Shown in pieces: positions 98-5,717 of a DNA stretch of 5,717 nucleotides (positions are counted from its first letter, which is position 1; each line of letters begins with the position of its first letter). The position numbers and the translations under genes were made by a program. The DNA is from a virus (Duplodnaviria > Heunggongvirae > Uroviricota > Caudoviricetes), in IMG/VR virus record IMGVR_UViG_2671180577_000023; one strand, given 5' to 3'. The notes beneath the pieces are model-generated. The model was not told the origin of the DNA, ran no database searches, and was given only the letters and a program-made list of their open reading frames with translations.

Positions 98-151
98 CCT
101 GTTTACCTCTTTCTCAGGAAGTTTAGTCTCCAGGATTCCCGGGGCGGTTCA
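1..151 (-). mobile_element. Left-hand partial IS3-family insertion sequence (IS629/IS1203-like): terminal inverted repeat tip at 151, element body continues left of the window
   Basis: Minus strand from 151 reads TGAACCGCCCCGGGAATCCTGGAGACTAAACTTCC, then AGGA RBS and an ATG at 97-95 opening an ORF that translates [32 protein letters not shown], a recalled IS3-family OrfA N-terminus. The same 14-nt tip TGAACCGCCCCGGG recurs at 5613 on the plus strand. Confidence 0.8.
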
Positions 152-266
152 GTGGGAGCGAGTCTGCGCCGCGCTGCGGGAGCTGAACAAGCACCGGGAT
201 ATTGTTCGACAGATTGTCGATTCATCCGGTCGTATTGTGTCGGAAAAGTGATTGCCGGAGGCGCTT

Positions 267-662
267 ATGGCGAAACCTTTTACACACGAACAGCGGGAAG
301 AACTGAAGGCACGAATTATCGGATTGGTACGCAAAAATGAACGCATGACGATATCGCAACTGGAGAGAGCGACGGGAGCAGGCTGGCATTCAGTCAGACG
401 TTGCCTTGTGGATGTACTGGCTTGTGGCGATTTATACATGTCCGGTAAATACGGTGTTTTTGCATCAGAACAGGTGTATCGCGTATGGCGTAAGACACCG
501 GAGAAAACAACTGACCAGACATTGATTCGAAAGTTACCAGACGGAGAAATTCGCCGCTACGATAGACGCCTGAACATAATCTGTCGCGAGTGCCGGAATA
601 GTGAAGTTATGCAGCGCGTGCTGGCTTTCTATCAGGGGAATTTTCAGGAGGCGGTACTGTGA
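267..662 (+). CDS. Hypothetical prophage protein, possible winged-helix DNA-binding protein (131 aa)
   Basis: ORF-track frame 252..662; the ATG at 267 is preferred because GGAGG sits 5 nt upstream. Stop TGA overlaps the GTG at 659 of the next ORF. Segment MTISQLERATGAGWHSVRRCL looks HTH-like. No family recognised. Confidence 0.6.
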   Translation: MAKPFTHEQREELKARIIGLVRKNERMTISQLERATGAGWHSVRRCLVDVLACGDLYMSGKYGVFASEQVYRVWRKTPEKTTDQTLIRKLPDGEIRRYDRRLNIICRECRNSEVMQRVLAFYQGNFQEAVL

Positions 663-718
663 GTAAATTAGCTATCAGGCTTCAATTGTCGCTGGCATTC
701 GCATCAAAGGAGAATGAG

Positions 719-1303
719 ATGACCACTTTTACAAAAGAGCAGTTAATCAGTCATGTTAGTGAAAATGTAAAGGCGATGAAATTTGCAGTAAAACAGACAG
801 CATTCAAAAATTCTCTCGAGGCAATTGAGTTGGATTTAGCACTGGCCCTTGTTGCTCAGGCTTCGCTGGAAGCAGAGCCCGTGCTTTATATGAATCGATT
901 TACCGGAAAGACATTCTCACTGGAAGAGCAACCCGGTGCTGATAAGGAACCGGAAATATACGTGCCGCTATATGCTGCCCCGCCAGACAGCGCCGCCATG
1001 CTTCAGGCTGGAAACTTTCGGGAAAAGAAGGGTTCGTCAACCAATAATTTTCGGGAAATCTCGGAAACGTCAACCAACCATCCGGTAACTCTGGATGGTT
1101 GGATAAGCTGTAGTGAGCGAATGCCGGATGACGGTCAGCACGTAATTATTTTATGTGATGGCGCATTCGTTCTTTATGCGCAATATCGAGACGGTGAGTT
1201 TTTTGATGTAGTCCGTGATGGTGATGAATTTTTCGAAACACAGAGCCGCAATGTAACCGACTGGATGCCGCTACCAGAACCGCCGCAGGAGGTGCGCCAA
1301 TGA
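719..1303 (+). CDS. Phage protein with C-terminal DUF551-like domain (194 aa from ATG 719; alternative GTG start at 659 gives 214 aa)
   Basis: ORF-track 659..1303. ATG at 719 is preceded by AAGGAG with 6-nt spacing. C-terminus WISCSERMPDDGQHVIILCDG...VTDWMPLPEPP follows the recalled DUF551 pattern common in lambdoid prophages. Confidence 0.7.
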   Translation: MTTFTKEQLISHVSENVKAMKFAVKQTAFKNSLEAIELDLALALVAQASLEAEPVLYMNRFTGKTFSLEEQPGADKEPEIYVPLYAAPPDSAAMLQAGNFREKKGSSTNNFREISETSTNHPVTLDGWISCSERMPDDGQHVIILCDGAFVLYAQYRDGEFFDVVRDGDEFFETQSRNVTDWMPLPEPPQEVRQ

Positions 1304-1383
1304 ACTGGCCTGAAGCATTTGCAATTACAGGCGTTGCTATGGCTATCACCTTTTTAGTATATGTTATTTGTCGGTGGGGGTAA
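1300..1383 (+). CDS. Small hydrophobic peptide, 27 aa (MNWPEAFAITGVAMAITFLVYVICRWG), predicted single transmembrane helix
   Basis: ATG at 1300 overlaps the TGA stop of the DUF551 gene (ATGA); AGGAGG lies 7 nt upstream. Not in the ORF track because it is under the size cutoff. Confidence 0.4.
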   Translation: MNWPEAFAITGVAMAITFLVYVICRWG

Positions 1384-1418
1384 AAACGTTCGCCGGGATT
1401 AACACCAAAGGAGGGAAT

Positions 1419-1523
1419 ATGTCGGATGATATATCACTGGCAATGGAAGGTGCGCTGGCTGTTATTGCTGTTGTGGGCGTTTACTGCCTGGTTGTGTTTT
1501 TGATGGATCGACTAGGGAACTGA
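1419..1523 (+). CDS. Small hydrophobic peptide, 34 aa (MSDDISLAMEGALAVIAVVGVYCLVVFLMDRLGN), predicted single transmembrane helix
   Basis: ATG at 1419 preceded by AAGGAGGG (1408-1415). Hydrophobic core flanked by charged residues. Not in the ORF track because it is under the size cutoff. Confidence 0.45.
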   Translation: MSDDISLAMEGALAVIAVVGVYCLVVFLMDRLGN

Positions 1524-1565
1524 ATTCATTACGATATGGGAATTCCCATATCGGGTAAAAACGGT

Positions 1566-1593
1566 TTGCGGTAAAGCGAGAGTTAAGTAGAAT
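1566..1593 (+). promoter_or_regulatory. Putative sigma70 promoter for the hok-like toxin mRNA (TTGCGG, 16 nt, TAGAAT)
   Basis: Hexamers read directly; position is consistent with a ~400-nt hok-type mRNA ending at the terminator near 2014. Confidence 0.3.
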
Positions 1594-1768
1594 TGCTGCG
1601 GGTGCTTGAGGCTGTCTGCCTCGGGCATGCCACCGTAAGGCAGACAGAGAAAAGCCCCAGTTAACATTACGCGTCCTGCAAGACGCCTAACATTAATCTG
1701 AGGCCAATTTCATGCTAGACACATGTAGGTTAGCCTCTTACGCGCCGAAAGGCAAGGAGAAGCAGGCT

Positions 1769-1924
1769 ATGAAGCAGCAAAAGGCGATGTTAGTCGCCCT
1801 GATCGTCATCTGTATTACCGTCGTAGTGACGGCACTGGTAACGAGGAAAGACCTCTGCGAGGTACGAATCCGAACCGGTCAGACGGAGGTTGCTGTCTTC
1901 ACAGCTTACGAACCTGAGGAGTAA
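1769..1924 (+). CDS. Hok/Gef-family type I toxin (51 aa, small membrane-active peptide)
   Basis: MKQQKAMLVALIVICITVVVTALVTRKDLCEVRIRTGQTEVAVFTAYEPEE has the Hok signature: N-terminal transmembrane helix then TRK.LCE.R...G..EVAAF.AYE. AAGGAG sits 9 nt upstream of the ATG. The ORF track extends the same frame to an ATG at 1712 (mok-like leader frame). Confidence 0.85.
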   Translation: MKQQKAMLVALIVICITVVVTALVTRKDLCEVRIRTGQTEVAVFTAYEPEE

Positions 1925-1992
1925 GAGACCAGGCGAGGGAGAAATCCCTCGCCACCTCTGATGTGTCAGGCATCCTCAACGCACCCGCACTT

Positions 1993-2014
1993 AACCCGCT
2001 TCGGCGGGTTTTTT
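1993..2014 (+). terminator. Rho-independent terminator ending the hok-like mRNA
   Basis: CCCGC-TTCG-GCGGG hairpin followed by TTTTTT. It is preceded at 1932-1953 by a 9-bp stem with GAAA loop (GGCGAGGGA gaaa TCCCTCGCC). Confidence 0.7.
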
Positions 2015-2133
2015 CACTTACTGTGGTTGTGAATACGATTGGTATTAGGCTATGCTAACAACATTAGCCTGACTAATTTTGTATTGACTTGATTTTTGTT
2101 AAAGAACAGGACGGAGAAGTAAGGGTACACCCA

Positions 2134-2313
2134 ATGAGCTACGCACTAAAAAAACACCCGCGATTGACTATTCCCCCTCGCGATAAAAGCGTTGTGGCAG
2201 CTCCGCGCCCGGCTATCGATGAAAATTGCACTCATCGTGAGCAGGTGAAAAATGCTTTCGATTTCGGTTTTTCTCGTTACGAGAAGGCAATGGAAGAACT
2301 TTCAAAAGTGTAA
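2134..2313 (+). CDS. Small protein (60 aa) directly upstream of the Doc-family gene; candidate antitoxin, not Phd-like
   Basis: ATG at 2134 with AAGGG 8 nt upstream; stop at 2311-2313 lies 18 nt before the Doc-like start. ORF-track frame 2089..2313 begins at a TTG. Sequence MSYALKKHPRLTIPPRDKSVVAAPRPAIDENCTHREQVKNAFDFGFSRYEKAMEELSKV shows no resemblance to Phd/YefM. Confidence 0.5.
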   Translation: MSYALKKHPRLTIPPRDKSVVAAPRPAIDENCTHREQVKNAFDFGFSRYEKAMEELSKV

Positions 2314-2331
2314 TGATGGGTATTGTGCTCT

Positions 2332-2817
2332 ATGGCTGAGATTGTTGAAGGAGTGCACTACCTTTCGTTTGATGATCTTACCGAAATTAATCGCCTTTTA
2401 ATTGAGCTTCAAACACCAGATGAACCTGTTAGTGTGCTGAGTGTTGATAATTTAAGTTCTTCTCAGTCTCGTCCCAGCATGGTTCGATGGTATGAACAGA
2501 CTAATGACATGTTTGTACTGGCATCAGTATTGATTGAAAGTCTGATTCAGAATCATCCATTTGCTAATGCAAACAAACGAACAGCTATGATGGCTGGTTA
2601 TGTCTTCTTGTTGTTGAATGGCTATGAGTTAACAGCACCAGGCGATGAAATCGTGGAAATGGCAGAGGGACTGGCCTGCAAAACCTATACTCGAGAAGAT
2701 CTCGAGAACTGGTTGTGTTATTGGTCTCGTGCGTATGACAGCCGGGAATTATGTAAAACAGGCGCAACTATTGTTTTGTATGAAACTATCAAGCTTAAAA
2801 TAGAACAGCAAAACTAA
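2332..2817 (+). CDS. Doc (death-on-curing) / Fic-fold family toxin, 161 aa
   Basis: Contains HPFANANKRTA, which fits the Doc motif H-x-F-x-(D/N)-(A/G)-N-K-R exactly. ORF-track frame 2323..2817 starts at TTG; the first ATG is at 2332. Confidence 0.8.
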   Translation: MAEIVEGVHYLSFDDLTEINRLLIELQTPDEPVSVLSVDNLSSSQSRPSMVRWYEQTNDMFVLASVLIESLIQNHPFANANKRTAMMAGYVFLLLNGYELTAPGDEIVEMAEGLACKTYTREDLENWLCYWSRAYDSRELCKTGATIVLYETIKLKIEQQN

Positions 2818-2833
2818 AGGTGCTTCTAATGAA

Positions 2834-2858
2834 AACCCGCTTCGGCGGGTTTTGTTGT
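2834..2858. terminator. Bidirectional intrinsic terminator between the convergent Doc-like and HigA-like genes
   Basis: CCCGC-TTCG-GCGGG hairpin (2836-2849) with TTTTGTTGT on the plus side and a T-run on the minus side. The hairpin and flanks (AACCCGCTTCGGCGGGTTTT) are identical to the hok terminator at 1993-2012. Confidence 0.6.
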
Positions 2859-2867
2859 ATTGGAGTA

Positions 2868-3185
2868 TCATGATATTACCTGGATCCCGTTTTTCTCTAC
2901 GACTGAAAGAAGGCGAAGAGCGGCACCTCCCGGCCGTTTTACACCACGTTCCCAGTCTGATATCAGGTTTTTACTGACGTTGAGGTATCTGGCAAAAACA
3001 GGTTGAGACAGATGCTCTCGTTCGCGCAGTGCACGGATCCTTTCCGGAGACATTACCGGCGCTGGCTGGAGACAAGTTTCATCGAATTCTCGCATAGTCT
3101 GTTTCGTTACTGCGCCGATATCATGAAGCGATTCCATCATTTCATGTACGGATGCAAGCGCATCACTGCGGTAATTTTTACTCAT
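2868..3185 (-). CDS. HigA-like antitoxin, XRE-type helix-turn-helix (COG2944-like), 105 aa
   Basis: ORF-track 2868..3185. C-terminal SPERIRALREREHLSQPVFARYLNVSKNLISDWERGVKRPGGAALRLL matches the recalled HTH antitoxin family partnered with RelE/ParE-like toxins. Its ATG (3185-3183) overlaps the stop of the upstream toxin frame (ATGAGTAA), the toxin-first order typical of HigBA. Confidence 0.8.
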   Translation of the reverse strand: MSKNYRSDALASVHEMMESLHDIGAVTKQTMREFDETCLQPAPVMSPERIRALREREHLSQPVFARYLNVSKNLISDWERGVKRPGGAALRLLSVVEKNGIQVIS

Positions 3186-3548
3186 TGGGTACCTCCGTAA
3201 ACTGACCCTGTAGAATCAGTTGTGCCAGTTGTTCATCTGTTAGATTGAGTACGTGAGGAGCCGCCTTCCGAAATGCACTTTCCGCAGTAGCGGTTATATT
3301 TTCACGTTCATTTTTTGCGTATGCATATACGAAAAAGGCCCTTGTGCCGACGCGATAGAAAATGATTGTGCGATAACCGCCAGATTTGCCGCCACCGACT
3401 CGTGGCAGACGTTGCTTGATAACGCCGTTACCCAGGTTTGCTGAGATAAGCCCGTTATCAGCCTGTTTAACAATTTCGCGCAGTGATTGGTCGGATATTT
3501 TGTTTTGCGTGCAAATCGCTCAAACCAGGCGTTTTTAAAAATGCGCAT
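3178..3548 (-). pseudogene. RelE/ParE-superfamily (HigB-like) toxin gene, disrupted by a frameshift after codon ~16
   Basis: From ATG 3548-3546 the frame reads MRIFKNAWFERFARK, the conserved N-terminus of this family, then runs into unrelated sequence (ORF-track 3294..3611). The rest of the toxin (KISDQSLREIVKQADNGLISANLGNGVIKQRLPRVGGGKSGGYRTIIFYRVGTRAFFVYAYAKNERENITATAESAFRKAAPHVLNLTDEQLAQLILQGQFTEVPNE) is intact in another frame with no start codon of its own. The break lies in the A-rich tract AAAACAAAATAT (about 3495-3506). Confidence 0.7.
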
Positions 3549-3570
3549 TTTTTGTTCCGTTATTAATGTA

Positions 3571-3585
3571 TAACACATAGTGTTA
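3571..3585. promoter_or_regulatory. Perfect inverted repeat TAACAC-ata-GTGTTA upstream of the higB-like start; candidate operator for the HigA-like repressor
   Basis: 6-bp arms with 3-bp spacer read directly; sits about 25 bp upstream of the toxin ATG in its promoter region. Confidence 0.35.
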
Positions 3586-3615
3586 CATTGCGTAGGGATC
3601 TGCAATGCCATCAGT

Positions 3616-3645
3616 TTGACAACGTCGCGTGTTCGGGGCTATATT
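3616..3645 (+). promoter_or_regulatory. Near-consensus sigma70 promoter (TTGACA, 18 nt, TATATT) driving the leader, c4-like RNA and ORF6N operon
   Basis: Hexamers read directly; the same architecture (TTGACG, 18 nt, TATATT) recurs at 5201-5230 upstream of the paralogous module. Confidence 0.6.
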
Positions 3646-3705
3646 CCTCACGCGCCAGCAAAACCTGGCGTCGGGATTAGCACCCCGGATATCGAAACGG
3701 TGCAT

Positions 3706-3726
3706 AACCGCGCTGGCGGTTTTTTT
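3706..3726 (+). terminator. Terminator-like hairpin plus T7 run in the leader, between target sites and the c4-like RNA (possible attenuator)
   Basis: AACCGC-GCTG-GCGGTT followed by TTTTTTT. The upstream CGCCAG (3653-3658) can pair with either CTGGCG copy (3665-3670 or 3713-3718), giving alternative folds. Confidence 0.45.
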
Positions 3727-3758
3727 ATGCGCTAAGCACAGTCACATTCGCGATTTAT

Positions 3759-3835
3759 GGCGGGCTGTGTGGGGGAGCCGAAAGGCTCGCCGGATGTTTC
3801 GACCGGTAGTGCTAACCCCGCACAGTTCGCCACCA
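3759..3835 (+). ncRNA. Candidate c4-like antisense regulatory RNA (~77 nt) upstream of the ORF6N gene
   Basis: A 16-bp closing helix (3759-3774 with 3816-3831) encloses a GNRA hairpin (GAGCC-GAAA-GGCTC) and two loops. Loop GTTTCGA (3796-3802) is complementary to TCGAAAC at 3692-3698 and 3873-3879; loop GTGCTAA (3809-3815) is complementary to TTAGCAC at 3677-3683 and 3842-3848. A 3-prime ACCA tail follows. The second target pair lies just upstream of the ORF6N RBS. Confidence 0.5.
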
Positions 3836-3890
3836 CGATGATTAGCACCTGACGGTGGCGAGGTAAAAATTATCGAAACGCGAGGTCATT

Positions 3891-4556
3891 ATGGCTGTTC
3901 AAATTTCTGTCGAAAACCTTTCCCCTGTTACCTATAACCAGATCCCCGTAATTACTACTGAACTGTTGGCTCACCTTTACGGAACAAAAATCAAAAACAT
4001 TTCTGATAACTTTCTGAACAACACGACGCGATTCATGCCCGGAAAGCATTACTTTAAAATTGAAAAAAACGAATTACGCGAGTTTAAGAACAGACCCGAA
4101 ACAATCGGGTTAGTTGGTAAAAATGCCCGCTCCCTCATCCTCTGGACAGAACGCGGCGCAGCCCGTCACGCAAAAATGCTCGAAACCGATCGGGCGTGGG
4201 AGGTATTCGAAAAACTGGAAGACTGCTATTTCAGCCAGGGAAAAACAGCACCAACCGAACAGCAGCCGCAGATTCAGCCACAATTCACAGCCGAAGAAAT
4301 CATCCTCCTTTGCTACATGCAGCTCTGGATGGAAAAAGCCCAGGACATCAGCAAACACCTGTATCCCATTATGAAAGAGCTGAACTCCTCATACACGAAC
4401 AAGCTGTATGACATTGCGTTTGAGACCATCTACATGGTGACGAAGAACAGAGACGCGCTACTGAGGGAGGTAACACGTCTCGACATGTCAAGTTCCGTTA
4501 TCCAGCGGGCCATGCCAATGCTGAAAAGCCTGCGGGCAAGACAATTTGAATTCTGA
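3891..4556 (+). CDS. Antirepressor-like protein with N-terminal ORF6N/KilA-N-type domain, 221 aa
   Basis: ORF-track 3891..4556; GAGG lies 5 nt upstream of the ATG. N-terminus MAVQISVENLSPVTYNQIPVITTELLAHLYGT...FMPGKHYFKIEKNELREF matches the recalled ORF6N pattern of phage antirepressors. Confidence 0.75.
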   Translation: MAVQISVENLSPVTYNQIPVITTELLAHLYGTKIKNISDNFLNNTTRFMPGKHYFKIEKNELREFKNRPETIGLVGKNARSLILWTERGAARHAKMLETDRAWEVFEKLEDCYFSQGKTAPTEQQPQIQPQFTAEEIILLCYMQLWMEKAQDISKHLYPIMKELNSSYTNKLYDIAFETIYMVTKNRDALLREVTRLDMSSSVIQRAMPMLKSLRARQFEF

Positions 4557-4560
4557 AACT

Positions 4561-4583
4561 AAAGGAGCTTCGGCTCCTTTTTT
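4561..4583 (+). terminator. Rho-independent terminator after the ORF6N gene
   Basis: GGAGC-TTCG-GCTCC hairpin followed by TTTTTT. Coordinates are approximate to within a base. Confidence 0.7.
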
Positions 4584-4610
4584 GTTGGGAAAATCCAGTG
4601 AGAGGGAATA

Positions 4611-5021
4611 ATGAACCAGACTATCTTCCTCCGAAGTAAGCAGCAGCAACAATTCGCCATTAACGCCATCCTTGCAACAACTCTCGATAAAGACAAACCC
4701 GTTACGATCCGCATCACCGATTACAAGCGGAATCTCGATCAAAATGCCAAATTTCACGCGATGGTCGCTGATATCTCCCGACAGGTTCAGTGGTGCGGCA
4801 GATGGCTAAAACCAGAACAGTGGAAAGTTTTGTTAATCAGCGGTCATGCCGTGGCGACAAAACAGGAAGCTGATGTTTTGCCTGGTCTTGAAGGTGAATA
4901 CGTCAATATCCGCGAAAGCAGTGCGCAGATGAGCGTGAAGCGTATGGCAAGCCTGATTGAGTACACAACTTCCTGGGCTGTGGAGCAGGGTGTCAGATTT
5001 ACCGACAGGAGGTATGAATGA
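4611..5021 (+). CDS. ninB: NinB-family protein (lambda NinB-like single-strand DNA-binding recombination protein), 136 aa
   Basis: ORF-track 4611..5021. Segment [33 protein letters not shown] aligns with the recalled lambda NinB core RSLDQNRKLWACLGDVSRQVEWHGRWLDAESWK. GAGGG RBS upstream. Confidence 0.8.
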
Positions 5022-5200
5022 GACGACAGCGACGAAGCATTACCGATATAGTCTGTGAAAACTGCAATTACCTTCCAACGAAACGTTCCAGAAATAAACC
5101 CAGGCCAATCCCAAAAGAATCTGACGTTAAAGCCTTCAATTACACGGCTCACCTGTGGGATATCCGGTGGCTAAGACATCGTGCGAGGAAAACAAGGTGA
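5018..5200 (+). CDS. ninE: NinE-family protein, 60 aa
   Basis: ORF-track 5018..5200. Start overlaps the ninB stop (ATGA). [60 protein letters not shown] matches the recalled lambda NinE sequence closely. Confidence 0.75.
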
Positions 5201-5230
5201 TTGACGTGATGATTTATTCGGGGCTATATT
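5201..5230 (+). promoter_or_regulatory. Sigma70 promoter (TTGACG, 18 nt, TATATT) of the second leader / c4-like / ORF6N module
   Basis: Same spacing and -10 as the promoter at 3616-3645. The downstream 40 nt (TTCCTCACGCGCCAGCAAAAYCTGGCGTCGGGATT) are nearly identical between modules. Confidence 0.55.
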
Positions 5231-5291
5231 CCTCACGCGCCAGCAAAATCTGGCGTCGGGATTGGCGTCCTGGATAGAGACCGCGACAGAT

Positions 5292-5314
5292 ACACGCCGC
5301 GAGCGTGTTTTTTA
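5292..5314 (+). terminator. Terminator-like hairpin plus T-run in the second leader (counterpart of 3706-3726)
   Basis: ACACGC-CGCGA-GCGTGT followed by TTTTTT. Sequence differs from module A but structure and position are conserved. Confidence 0.5.
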
Positions 5315-5344
5315 TTGTCGTATGCACGCGCACATCTGAATTAT

Positions 5345-5420
5345 GGTGGGCTGTGTGGGGGCGGAGAGATCCGCGCCGGTCGGTTTCCCGGTTACGCCAA
5401 CCCTGCACAGTTCACCACCA
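5345..5420 (+). ncRNA. Second candidate c4-like antisense RNA (~76 nt), diverged paralogue of 3759-3835
   Basis: Same architecture: 16-bp closing helix (5345-5360 with 5401-5416), GNRA hairpin GCGGA-GAGA-TCCGC, two recognition loops, ACCA tail. Loop ACGCCAA (5394-5400) is complementary to TTGGCGT at 5262-5268 and 5426-5432; loop GGTTTC is complementary to GAAACC near the RBS (5453-5458). Confidence 0.5.
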
Positions 5421-5474
5421 GACGATTGGCGTCGTCGGTGGTGAGTTATTAAGAAACCACTCGAGGGCGTCATT

Positions 5475-5615
5475 ATGACAACTCAAATCTCTGTTGAAAC
5501 ACTCTCCACGATTACTTACAAGCAGATCCCCGTTATCACTACCGAACTTTTGGCGCACCTTTACGGCACAGAAGCTATTCGTATTCGCCAGAATCACCAC
5601 GAAAACAAAGGTTGA
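5475..5615 (+). pseudogene. Second ORF6N antirepressor-like gene, truncated after codon 46 by the IS insertion
   Basis: GAGGG RBS then ATG at 5475; MTTQISVETLSTITYKQIPVITTELLAHLYGTEAIRIRQNHHENKG parallels the first 46 residues of the 3891..4556 protein. The frame stops at TGA 5613-5615, which is the first three bases of the IS terminal repeat. Confidence 0.75.
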
Positions 5616-5717
5616 ACCGCCCCGGGTTTCCTGGAGAGTGTTTTATCTGTGAACTCAGGCTGCCAGATCATCGTTTCCGATGGAAGCATAATAAGCTTTT
5701 TCTGCTTCTGCCGGAGG
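5613..5717 (-). mobile_element. Right-hand partial IS3-family insertion sequence (IS629/IS1203-like): terminal repeat at 5613, body continues past the window end
   Basis: Plus strand from 5613 reads TGAACCGCCCCGGGTTTCCTGGAGAGTG, sharing its first 14 nt with the repeat at 151 and diverging after, as expected for the opposite end of the same IS. Same orientation as the left copy. Confidence 0.8.
5655..5717 (-). CDS. IS3-family transposase OrfB, C-terminal 20 codons only (continues beyond window end)
   Basis: Minus-strand frame reads PPAEAEKAYYASIGNDDLAA then TGA (plus 5655-5657), ending about 40 nt inside the terminal repeat, the usual layout for an IS3-family OrfB. Confidence 0.55.
   Translation of the reverse strand, partial: PPAEAEKAYYASIGNDDLAA

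Follow-up and report, generated by a model that had tools for sequence, protein, structure and literature searches.

Antisense RNA switches of temperate phages

In phages P1 and P7, the immI operon has the order a1-b1-c4-a2-b2-icd-ant1/2 and encodes the antisense RNA c4 (Citron and Schuster, 1990, as cited in PMC8198154). RNase P cleaves the c4 RNA in these phages (PMC11143913), and their heteroimmunity rests on loop sequences that fix specificity (PMC12197685). Another relevant system is the isrK-orf45-anrP-isrJ locus of the Gifsy-1 prophage of Salmonella, described by Hershko-Shalev et al. in 2016 (PMC4825925). At that locus a terminator produces the 77-nt IsrK RNA, some transcripts read through downstream, and a processed species of ~80 nt, STnc1160, comes from the 'orf45' region (PMC4825925). 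The AnrP protein induces the prophage, and IsrK supplied in trans resulted in a ~140-fold rise in anrP translation and a ~8-fold rise in the long transcript (PMC4825925). The model proposed by these authors employs two alternative cis folds and translational coupling via orf45, without a trans-acting c4-like repressor (PMC4825925). This literature handles IsrK and c4 as unrelated: IsrK has been derived from the gene for an ASH-domain protein in one report (PMC8825220), and IsrK and c4 are listed separately in another (PMC12197685).

Two further phage systems resemble the locus analyzed here in part. In P4 (PMC4825925), a small RNA is processed from the leader of its own operon, pairs with complementary sites on either side of itself, and restrains anti-immunity or replication genes. 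P4 differs in that its RNA acts by premature transcription termination and not by occlusion of a ribosome binding site (RBS). A further element of this kind goes back to a 1999 study (as cited in PMC10732415). In P22, too, a small RNA, sar, keeps ribosomes from their site on an antirepressor mRNA (PMC12197685). However, sar is a true cis-antisense RNA that comes from the other strand and spans the ant RBS, whereas the RNAs described below are all encoded on the same strand; no promoter-like site was found on the minus strand between 3450 and 5500.

Organization of the two modules

The window, meaning the whole 5,717-nt stretch of DNA that we analyzed, represents the nin region of a lambdoid prophage from E. 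coli. It contains a self-contained cassette, module 1, that extends from promoter to terminator (3616-4588). The part ahead of the gene, 3616-3890, is blank in the RefSeq annotation, and the gene that follows is named only "ORF6N domain-containing protein". The first-pass annotation had read 3616-3890 as a c4-like antirepressor module, and this reading is supported by matches to three Rfam families, by the spacing of P1 immI and by identity of the gene product to AnrP. That annotation had left undecided whether the element was known. The C4, c4-a1b1 and isrK covariance models all score above their gathering (GA) thresholds, so the element is already catalogued. All Rfam matches in the window fall on the plus strand, to which every coordinate below refers.

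A predicted sigma-70 promoter occupies 3616-3645, with -35 TTGACA (3616-3621), an 18-nt spacer and -10 TATATT (3640-3645). Direct reading and a promoter scan both agree with the first-pass assignment; with 11 of 12 matches, no other site in the scan resembled a promoter more closely. Among 94 distinct relatives, TTGACN is kept in 80 and TATATT in 72, and the predicted transcription start lies near G3652. No LexA box was found near either promoter of the window, where the only CTGT-N8-ACAG match with at most one mismatch is at 975-990; antirepressor loci of the LexA-controlled type (Gifsy GfoA/GfhA, N15) have such a box at the promoter. An operator-like inverted repeat was also sought near the promoter of either module, and none was found. 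In P1, by contrast, Oc4 overlaps the promoter, whereas the promoter here has no C1-type operator.

Downstream of the promoter is an IsrK-like short leader RNA of 75 nt (3652-3726), delimited by the Rfam matches, the fold and the terminator. The isrK model (RF01394) matches 3652-3726 with 74.3 bits (GA 50), and c4-a1b1 (RF03163) matches 3639-3691 with 47.4 bits, a marginal pass over its GA of 46.7. The promoter ahead of the leader is conserved, and an antirepressor gene lies downstream on the same strand. The predicted fold begins with hairpin 1 (3652-3671), followed by hairpin 2 (3672-3687), whose CGGG/CCCG stem presents site A1, TTAGCAC, in its loop. The first-pass annotation described this hairpin and its loop correctly; the 7-mer itself is confined to 3677-3683. 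Site B1, TCGAAAC (3692-3698), and an intrinsic terminator, AACCGC-GCTG-GCGGTT followed by T7 (3706-3726), could be read directly where they had been placed, and a terminator scan found the latter too. Terminator-like hairpins occur in 84 of the 94 relatives and comprise 12 or more distinct stem sequences. The terminator had been taken to suggest an added attenuation step. It adds nothing to the P1 design, as P1 has the same arrangement of a hairpin and a U-run between b1 and c4, which the isrK model finds at 35 bits. The terminator in the window (T7) is stronger than that of P1, and the one in the Gifsy-1 homologue is known to release a discrete small RNA. TAAGCAC in the spacer (3734-3740) was considered as an extra target copy and rejected, since relatives with another A specificity share the spacer.

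The c4-like antisense RNA spans 77 nt (3759-3835), and its boundaries are those of the annotated 77-nt P1 c4 RNA. The C4 model (RF01695) matches 3753-3837 with 75.1 bits (GA 45). The minimum free energy (MFE) fold is as the first-pass annotation had drawn it: a 16-bp closing helix (3759-3774 with 3816-3831), a GAAA hairpin of the GNRA type (3775-3788), a second hairpin (3789-3807) whose loop, AUGUUUCGA, contains B' GTTTCGA (3796-3802), an unpaired stretch, AGUGCUAA, containing A' GTGCTAA (3809-3815), and an ACCA tail (3832-3835). Its energy of -48.6 kcal/mol (z = -6.2) was not matched by any of 200 shuffled sequences. Comparison with homologues likewise upheld a stable fold: compensatory changes affect 11 of the 26 pairs in 32 relatives, and the fold is maintained through such changes among 86 distinct relatives.

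The second copies of both sites are present immediately ahead of the gene, in agreement with the first-pass annotation. Site A2, TTAGCAC (3842-3848), covaries with A', of which it would be the target, and is the counterpart of P1 a2. Site B2, TCGAAAC (3873-3879), is the counterpart of b2 and ends 2 nt before the Shine-Dalgarno sequence (SD) GAGG (3882-3885); the antirepressor ATG is at 3891. We tentatively describe a hairpin that presents A2 (3827-3861), in which TCGCCACC (3827-3834) pairs with GGTGGCGA (3854-3861) and leaves A2 in a 19-nt loop. This hairpin is part of the MFE fold of the full leader, and it and the c4 closing helix are mutually exclusive. In 34 relatives including P1, 89.7% of cells are paired, although covariation in this count of a hand-specified helix is weak. 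RNAalifold gave no consensus structure around A2, with divergent subgroups aligned out of register. It is for these reasons that the hairpin is called tentative.

The gene itself (3891-4556) encodes a 221-residue protein with ORF6N and P22AR_C domains according to Pfam. The protein matches the PHROG anti-repressor Ant family (1e-81) and is 80% identical to the N-terminal part of Gifsy-1 AnrP over 144 residues. The product is thus an antirepressor and, judging from its leader, one that would be controlled by RNA. An intrinsic terminator with a GC-rich 8-bp stem and a T-run (4561-4588) lies directly 3' of the stop codon. The antirepressor-type genes found downstream in 18 representatives include ORF6N (11), Bro-N (3) and Rha (1) types.

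A module of the same design with another specificity, overlooked in the first-pass annotation, lies at 5201-5474 and matches isrK, C4 and c4-a1b1 with 75.5, 66.7 and 50.5 bits, respectively. It consists of a promoter (5201-5230), an IsrK-like RNA (5237-5313) with A1 TTGGCGT (5262-5268) and B1 GAGACCG (5277-5283), a c4-like RNA (5344-5420) with B' CGGTTTC (5381-5387) and A' ACGCCAA (5394-5400), and the downstream sites A2 (5426-5432), B2 GAAACC (5453-5458) and SD (5463-5467). The second antirepressor gene, which encodes an ORF6N domain according to Pfam, starts at 5475 and is cut after codon 46 (5475-5612), with an IS3-family element occupying the sequence from 5613 onward; E. coli FORC_069 has an intact version encoding 227 residues. 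IS3-family ends flank the segment that carries both modules, and none of the complete E. coli genomes or individual loci compared extends across the IS junctions. Given these ends and the disruption of the second gene, the prophage may be defective.

Module 1 and P1 immI each encode a 77-nt RNA in which a long helix encloses two hairpins, two recognition elements are exposed and the 3' end is an ACC(A) tail, and both have one target pair upstream of this RNA and one pair downstream, with b2 at the RBS and an antirepressor gene beyond. The spacing is almost identical. Relative to the 5' end of c4, the P1 annotation places a1 at -88, b1 at -74, a2 at +80, b2 at +109 and the start codon at +127; the corresponding positions in the window are -82, -67, +83, +114 and +132. 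The Rfam scores of P1 are 68.8 bits for C4 and 51.0 bits for c4-a1b1. The two loci differ in that icd lies between b2 and the antirepressor gene in P1, whereas B2 directly precedes the gene in the window. Moreover, the P1 antirepressor is Ant1/2 and that of the window an ORF6N/P22AR_C protein, and P1 is a plasmid prophage whereas the window belongs to the nin region of a lambdoid prophage.

The Gifsy-1 locus is a direct homologue, with 80% DNA identity over ~600 nt. It has the same three Rfam matches in the same order (79.3 bits for isrK), with the C4 match exactly over the published 'orf45', and it shares with module 1 the promoter -10 block, the leader hairpins, the terminator and the c4-like RNA. 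Its specificity is different, with TTGGCGT at A where module 1 has TTAGCAC and TCACCG at B where module 1 has TCGAAAC. The stop codon of the 45-codon 'orf45' overlaps the anrP start (AUGA), whereas the corresponding frame in the window has 31 codons without such an overlap. A coupled uORF of this type is part of the published mechanism and not of what defines the Rfam family. Rfam detected no isrJ match downstream of the antirepressor gene in the window, where a plain terminator takes its place. The cassette in the window lies upstream of ninB, and that of Gifsy-1 just downstream of the Q gene.

Loop-target pairing, proposed mechanism and alternative explanations

Loops A' and B' are exact 7-nt complements of the four sites at 3677-3683, 3692-3698, 3842-3848 and 3873-3879. 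Each 7-mer is found three times, always in the orientation required, in a stretch of at most 190 nt; the expected occurrences in the whole 5,717-nt window, both strands counted, are 0.66 and 0.93. Among the 86 distinct relatives, both loops and both target pairs vary together, giving 32 specificity combinations that comprise 9 types of A' and 24 types of B'. Complementarity between cognate loops and targets averages 6.7 to 7.3 nt at all four sites, compared to 3.7 to 4.4 nt for non-cognate ones. The predicted cognate duplexes range from -7.3 to -10.3 kcal/mol, and those across the two modules from +1.1 to -4.9 kcal/mol. In every specificity type B2 either adjoins the SD or overlaps it, and the B2 match is on average longer than that of B1 (7.3 versus 6.7 nt), as it is in P1 (8/8 versus 7/8). 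Neither a uORF nor a purely cis-acting structure accounts for the fact that A2 and B2 follow the loops just as closely as A1 and B1.

We consider it probable, from these sequence comparisons, that module 1 is a P1-immI-type RNA switch of the IsrK subfamily that keeps a prophage antirepressor silent. In this mechanism, transcription would start near 3652 from the conserved promoter, which has no recognizable operator, and the majority of transcripts would end at 3706-3726, yielding a ~75-nt leader RNA with A1 and B1. Some transcripts would pass the terminator into the downstream genes, as shown in the Gifsy-1 homologue. The ~77-nt c4-like RNA would be excised from these read-through transcripts, as shown for P1; an acceptor-like helix with an ACCA tail is the type of substrate that RNase P cleaves in P1/P7. 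GTTTCGA and GTGCTAA would pair with B2 and A2 upstream of the SD and block translation of the antirepressor. For this repression step we draw on P1 and on the covariation found here; the Gifsy-1 experiments, the only direct ones on this subfamily, showed activation of antirepressor translation in trans by the leader RNA. The leader RNA carries the same 7-mers and would compete for the c4 loops, in trans and, within the unprocessed transcript, in cis, as has been partly shown in Gifsy-1; it would thereby act as a decoy that relieves repression. The balance of terminated leader, processed c4-like RNA and mRNA would then decide antirepressor synthesis and the push to induction. As the loop and site sequences would fix specificity, modules of unlike sequence should not cross-talk.

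Several Gifsy-1 results bear on this mechanism. Read-through of the terminator, the processed ~80-nt species STnc1160 and activation by IsrK in trans agree with it. Mutations C159U and C162U in the c4 loop strongly derepressed, and changes made in A1 to compensate failed to bring repression back (PMC4825925), which is compatible with another partner, for example A2. Constitutive expression of orf45/STnc1160 worsened IsrK toxicity (PMC4825925), which a simple model in which c4 represses and IsrK titrates does not predict. Nor does a pure decoy model predict that A1 mutations in cis (G28A and G31A) increase basal anrP translation, as was reported (PMC4825925).

The published Gifsy-1 model could be applied literally, so that 3759-3835 would be mRNA with the uORF 'orf45', the full-length transcript would adopt an inactive fold, the leader RNA would bind it in trans and free the ribosome site of the uORF, and translational coupling would switch the antirepressor on. 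We regard this as rather doubtful, even though the model has mutational support at a locus that is 80% identical (PMC4825925). In its MFE fold, the 249-nt leader as a whole indeed forms cis pairs between A1 and A' and between B1 and B', with the SD and AUG partly hidden (-109.4 kcal/mol versus -93.0 for the modular fold), and an AUG is found at the 5' edge of the c4-like RNA in 64 of 66 relatives. However, the uORF is not conserved as a coding unit: its length runs from 8 codons to over 64, indels in the loops change its frame, and 2 of the 66 relatives have no ATG. In the window (3757-3852) its stop lies 38 nt before the antirepressor ATG. P1-like processing, if it occurs, would cut between the U and the G of the uORF AUG and destroy the start codon. 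Stem substitutions are compensatory, which is the signature of an RNA, and the model assigns no role to A2 and B2 although both covary with the loops.

Less likely still is attenuation resembling that by the P4 CI RNA, in which the c4-like RNA would pair with A1 and B1 on the nascent transcript and enforce termination at 3706-3726 instead of blocking the RBS. In its favor, B1 ends 8 nt ahead of the terminator stem, and an alternative stem (3698-3715) overlaps the 5' arm of the terminator and abuts B1. The Gifsy-1 authors raised attenuation by analogy with P4 CI/seqA, and IsrK in trans gave the ~8-fold rise of the long transcript (PMC4825925). On the other hand, Enterobacter relatives have retained A1, B1, c4, A2 and B2 yet lack a U-run terminator (absent from 10 of the 94 relatives), and a non-systematic inspection revealed no obvious counterpart of the alternative stem in module 2. 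Attenuation also leaves the link between B2 and the SD unexplained, and co-expression of orf45/STnc1160 did not lessen the IsrK effect in Gifsy-1 (PMC4825925). That the hairpins and repeats arose by chance, or are a degenerate, functionless relic in an IS-bracketed fragment, we consider extremely improbable. The IS3-family flanks and the disrupted second gene would suit a relic, but three Rfam matches exceed curated thresholds, fewer than one occurrence of each 7-mer is expected per window, covariation is seen both in the structure and between loops and targets, and module 1 lacks none of its parts between promoter and terminator and has identical copies elsewhere.

Distribution and implications

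Several complete E. coli genomes carry identical copies of module 1, and many Stx-converting phages, both Stx1 and Stx2 converting, have modules that are ~99% identical to it. Sequences related to this cassette and gene occur in 861 of 5,426 complete E. coli genomes. The cassette is a textbook type of phage immunity RNA switch with all its parts already catalogued, real but ordinary. The fresher point, not stated in the cited literature, is that a single circuit appears to underlie both IsrK/'orf45' and P1 a1b1/c4. We extend this to a broader proposal, for and against which we find the case evenly balanced: IsrK with orf45 and P1 a1b1 with c4 would represent one ancient three-RNA circuit in which a decoy arises by termination, an antisense RNA by processing, and the mRNA is the target. 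IsrK would serve mainly as an anti-antisense sponge, and the loops would form a combinatorial address code (at least 9 × 24 loop types) that permits independent switches in polylysogens or even next to each other in a single prophage, of which the two modules here would be an example.

The annotation of 3616-3890 as a catalogued regulatory cassette is settled. An antirepressor can set off induction of a prophage, and toxin production by Stx phages is driven by induction. Decoy and antisense gating with exchangeable specificities would therefore be relevant to cross-talk between prophages. Together, the comparative data suggest that the Gifsy-1 IsrK results be read again in light of P1 c4.

An RNA cassette ahead of an antirepressor gene

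We read the sequence between 3400 and 4200 directly and found every element listed by the first-pass annotation, all on the plus strand. A promoter (TTGACA, 3616-3621; 18-nt spacer; TATATT, 3640-3645) was identified by reading and by a promoter scan, in which it ranked first across 3450-5500 (11 of 12 positions matching). Our operator search at this promoter revealed no LexA box and no operator-like repeat. Downstream lie a hairpin (3672-3687) that presents the first upstream target site, A1 (TTAGCAC, 3677-3683), in its loop, the second, B1 (TCGAAAC, 3692-3698), and a terminator-like hairpin with seven T residues (3706-3726), the latter also recovered by a terminator scan. The c4-like RNA (3759-3835) folds with a 16-bp closing helix, a GAAA hairpin and an ACCA tail (minimum free energy [MFE], -48.6 kcal/mol; z = -6.2). 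Its second hairpin carries the loop AUGUUUCGA, and its unpaired element is AGUGCUAA. Second copies of the targets, A2 (TTAGCAC, 3842-3848) and B2 (TCGAAAC, 3873-3879), are followed by GAGG (3882-3885) and the ATG at 3891. Both 7-mers occur three times, within at most 190 nt and in the orientation that pairing requires, versus fewer than one occurrence expected for the whole window. An intrinsic terminator (4561-4588) follows the antirepressor stop codon, and the cassette (3616-4588) is therefore self-contained.

The first reading had left open whether this element was already catalogued. Scanning the whole window against Rfam at the gathering threshold (GA) returned three plus-strand matches: C4 antisense RNA (RF01695, 3753-3837; 75.1 bits, GA 45), isrK (RF01394, 3652-3726; 74.3 bits, GA 50), and c4-a1b1 (RF03163, 3639-3691; 47.4 bits, GA 46.7). 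The c4-like interpretation was thus correct, and the finding is real but ordinary. The 221-amino-acid product of the downstream gene contains ORF6N and P22AR_C domains (Pfam), belongs to the PHROG "anti-repressor Ant" family (E = 1e-81), and is 80% identical over 144 amino acids to AnrP, whose expression induces Gifsy-1 (PMC4825925).

An alternative hairpin (3827-3861) can also be drawn, in which TCGCCACC, from the 3' strand and tail of the c4-like RNA, pairs with GGTGGCGA downstream. It displays A2 in its loop, as the upstream hairpin displays A1. This hairpin and the c4 closing helix are mutually exclusive; for the hairpin, pairing stands at 89.7% across 34 relatives, P1 among them, with little covariation.

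Counterparts in P1 and Gifsy-1 and conservation among relatives

The P1 GenBank record annotates a1, b1, a 77-nt c4 RNA, a2, b2, and icd. Relative to the c4 5' end, P1 a1, b1, a2, b2, and the ATG lie at -88, -74, +80, +109, and +127; the corresponding offsets here are -82, -67, +83, +114, and +132, in the same order. The terminator had been read as suggesting an added attenuation step, which was not borne out. The P1 b1-c4 interval (L145, 3285-3312) also has a hairpin and U-run (ACCGCAG...TTGCGGT ATTTTTG), over which the P1 record annotates no feature. The isrK model matches it at 35 bits (E = 8.5e-6, below gathering). This places the terminator in the ancestral design.

In Gifsy-1, the counterpart is the isrK-orf45-anrP-isrJ locus (Hershko-Shalev et al., PMC4825925). 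In the Gifsy-1 sequence (L002), the Rfam models match isrK at 4019-4095 and C4 at 4121-4204; the latter coincides exactly with the published "orf45," and anrP follows at 4259. The Gifsy-1 authors described "orf45" as a 45-codon ORF coupled to anrP, with a conserved nucleotide but not amino acid sequence (PMC4825925). Across 66 distinct sequences, the frame opened by the conserved AUG at the 5' edge of the RNA ranges from 8 to more than 64 codons, the frame shifts after the loops, and the ATG is absent in two. In the window this frame spans 31 codons (3757-3852) and stops 38 nt before the antirepressor ATG. The annotated 5' end of the mature P1 c4 RNA is at the GG of this AUGG, and processing as in P1 would thus eliminate the start codon. 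Judged from these sequences, an RNA function explains the conservation pattern better than a coding function.

Relatives were retrieved with a conserved 24- to 26-nt pattern from the first two hairpins, which yielded 120 viral contigs and 22 bacterial species genomes from Escherichia, Shigella, Salmonella, Enterobacter, Erwinia, Lelliottia, Leclercia, Lonsdalea, Leminorella, Atlantibacter, and Pseudocitrobacter. We collected 144 modules, 94 of them distinct; TTGACN is conserved in 80 and TATATT in 72 of the latter, and 84 carry the terminator-like hairpin, whose stem occurs in at least 12 sequence versions. The fold was compared across 32 distinct c4-like sequences: compensatory double changes affect 11 of its 26 predicted pairs, and hardly any pair is disrupted. 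Both recognition elements are hypervariable. Parsing succeeded for 86 modules, in which the 3' element takes 9 forms and the hairpin loop 24; 32 combinations of the two occur. Cognate complementarity averaged 7.1 nt for A upstream, 7.1 for A downstream, 6.7 for B upstream, and 7.3 for B downstream, compared to 3.7 to 4.4 nt for loops set against targets of other types; the upstream and downstream pairs thus both follow the loop sequences. The downstream B site adjoins or overlaps the Shine-Dalgarno sequence in all types. In 18 representative modules, the downstream gene encodes ORF6N (11), Bro-N (3), Rha (1), or a product with no Pfam match (3).

The few mismatched cases (L004, L009, L014, L082, and L115) are evidently recombinants or truncations. 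In four viral contigs (L115, L004, L009, and L082), the downstream target pair or gene is mismatched to the c4 loops; B2 of L115 belongs to another specificity type, and such recombinant hybrids might escape repression. In a group from Enterobacter spp. (L123, L126-L129, L142, and L143), leader hairpins, c4-like RNA, and the two target pairs are all retained without a U-run terminator. The gene downstream encodes a protein of about 145 amino acids (MTTSNALFTTPF...) without a Pfam match that is not a recognizable antirepressor.

Mechanism and alternatives

The mechanism to which we are committed combines P1-type logic with the Gifsy-1 findings. The promoter, which has no recognizable operator, would produce a mostly terminated leader of about 75 nt carrying A1 and B1, and the c4-like RNA would arise from read-through transcripts. 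Through base pairing of its two exposed elements with A2 and B2, at the ribosome site, this RNA would prevent translation of the antirepressor; the leader, with identical 7-mers, would compete for the c4 loops and relieve repression. Repression via a2 and b2 has been shown in P1, and RNase P processing of its RNA is cited in PMC11143913. In Gifsy-1, read-through and a processed species of about 80 nt were demonstrated, the leader in trans activated about 140-fold, and loop mutations derepressed (PMC4825925). We infer that in this subfamily the c4-like RNA represses and the leader acts as a decoy.

Two observations fit this mechanism less well. The MFE fold of the whole 249-nt leader (-109.4 kcal/mol, versus -93.0 for the modular fold) pairs A1 and B1 with their c4-like elements in cis and partly buries the Shine-Dalgarno sequence, matching "inactive structure A" of the cis-structure/uORF model proposed for Gifsy-1. 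Moreover, co-expression of the orf45 region did not relieve toxicity in Gifsy-1 (PMC4825925). We therefore keep both that model and a P4-like attenuation model as rivals to the P1-type mechanism.

A second module, the prophage setting, and what is new

The same Rfam scan detected a second complete trio (C4, isrK, and c4-a1b1) at 5224-5422, within a plus-strand module at 5201-5474 of different specificity (TTGGCGT/ACGCCAA; GAGACCG-GAAACC/CGGTTTC). With the ORF6N antirepressor gene that it drives, it spans 5201-5612; the two antirepressors are 48% identical. Predicted loop-target duplexes range from -7.3 to -10.3 kcal/mol for cognate and from +1.1 to -4.9 kcal/mol for cross-module pairs. By these energies, pairing should be orthogonal, and the prophage's two switches should therefore be largely independent. 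Two modules per locus also occur in two other compared loci (L012 and L026).

From 151 to 5612, the window is 100% identical to the chromosome of E. coli ML35 and 99.9% to FORC_069. The annotated context is a lambdoid prophage nin region, in the order cII and replication genes, DUF977, DUF551, hokD, doc-type toxin, RelE/HTH pair, module 1 with its ORF6N gene, ninB, ninE, module 2 with its Ant gene, KilAC Ant, rusA, ninH, and Q. IS3-family (IS1203/IS629-like) ends (TGAACCGCCCCGGG...) in the same orientation occupy the first 150 nt (1-150) and last 105 nt (5613-5717) and flank 5,462 bp of prophage; the right-hand one disrupts the second antirepressor gene after codon 46. Neither junction is spanned by any complete E. 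coli genome or compared locus. The intact prophage of FORC_069 has a third antirepressor-type gene (KilAC; L001, 11674-12396), 74 nt after the module 2 Ant gene.

Toxin genes lie upstream of module 1. A hok/sok type I locus occupies 1600-1924 (sok RNA, RF01794, 1600-1774, 116.9 bits in the Rfam scan), where sok and the beginning of a hokD-like ORF (ending at 1924) overlap. A Fic/Doc-family gene (2323-2817; death-on-curing toxin in RefSeq) follows a 74-amino-acid ORF without a Pfam match (region 2089-2817) that could be its antitoxin. A RelE/ParE-like toxin and then an HTH antitoxin (2868-3548) lie on the minus strand, opposite to the RNA module. A frameshift appears to split the toxin near 3500-3516, with its N terminus (MRIFKNAWFERFARK) and remainder (KISDQSLREIVK...) in different frames; the RefSeq coding sequence starts at a non-ATG codon.

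Query-related sequence is present in 861 of 5,426 complete E. coli genomes. The module and the first ~350 nt of its gene are 98 to 99% identical in many Stx1- and Stx2-converting phages (Min27, 24B, YYZ-2008, JLK-2012, and others) and 80% identical to Gifsy-1. The kind of element, its families, and near-identical copies are all known already: the c4 and c4-a1b1 motifs were reported from Proteobacteria and phages by Weinberg et al. (2010), and both C4 and isrK appear in an existing Rfam-based annotation of E. coli O157 EDL933. In the literature found on them, we saw no statement that IsrK/"orf45" is the P1 a1b1/c4 circuit. The Gifsy-1 paper does not mention "phage P1" and compares IsrK only with P4 (PMC4825925), a 2025 review treats IsrK and c4 as separate entries (PMC12197685), and, according to a 2022 paper, IsrK originated from an ASH-domain gene (PMC8825220). 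The only moderately fresh content lies in this synthesis, in which IsrK/"orf45" would correspond to P1 a1b1/c4, and in the wide range of specificities.
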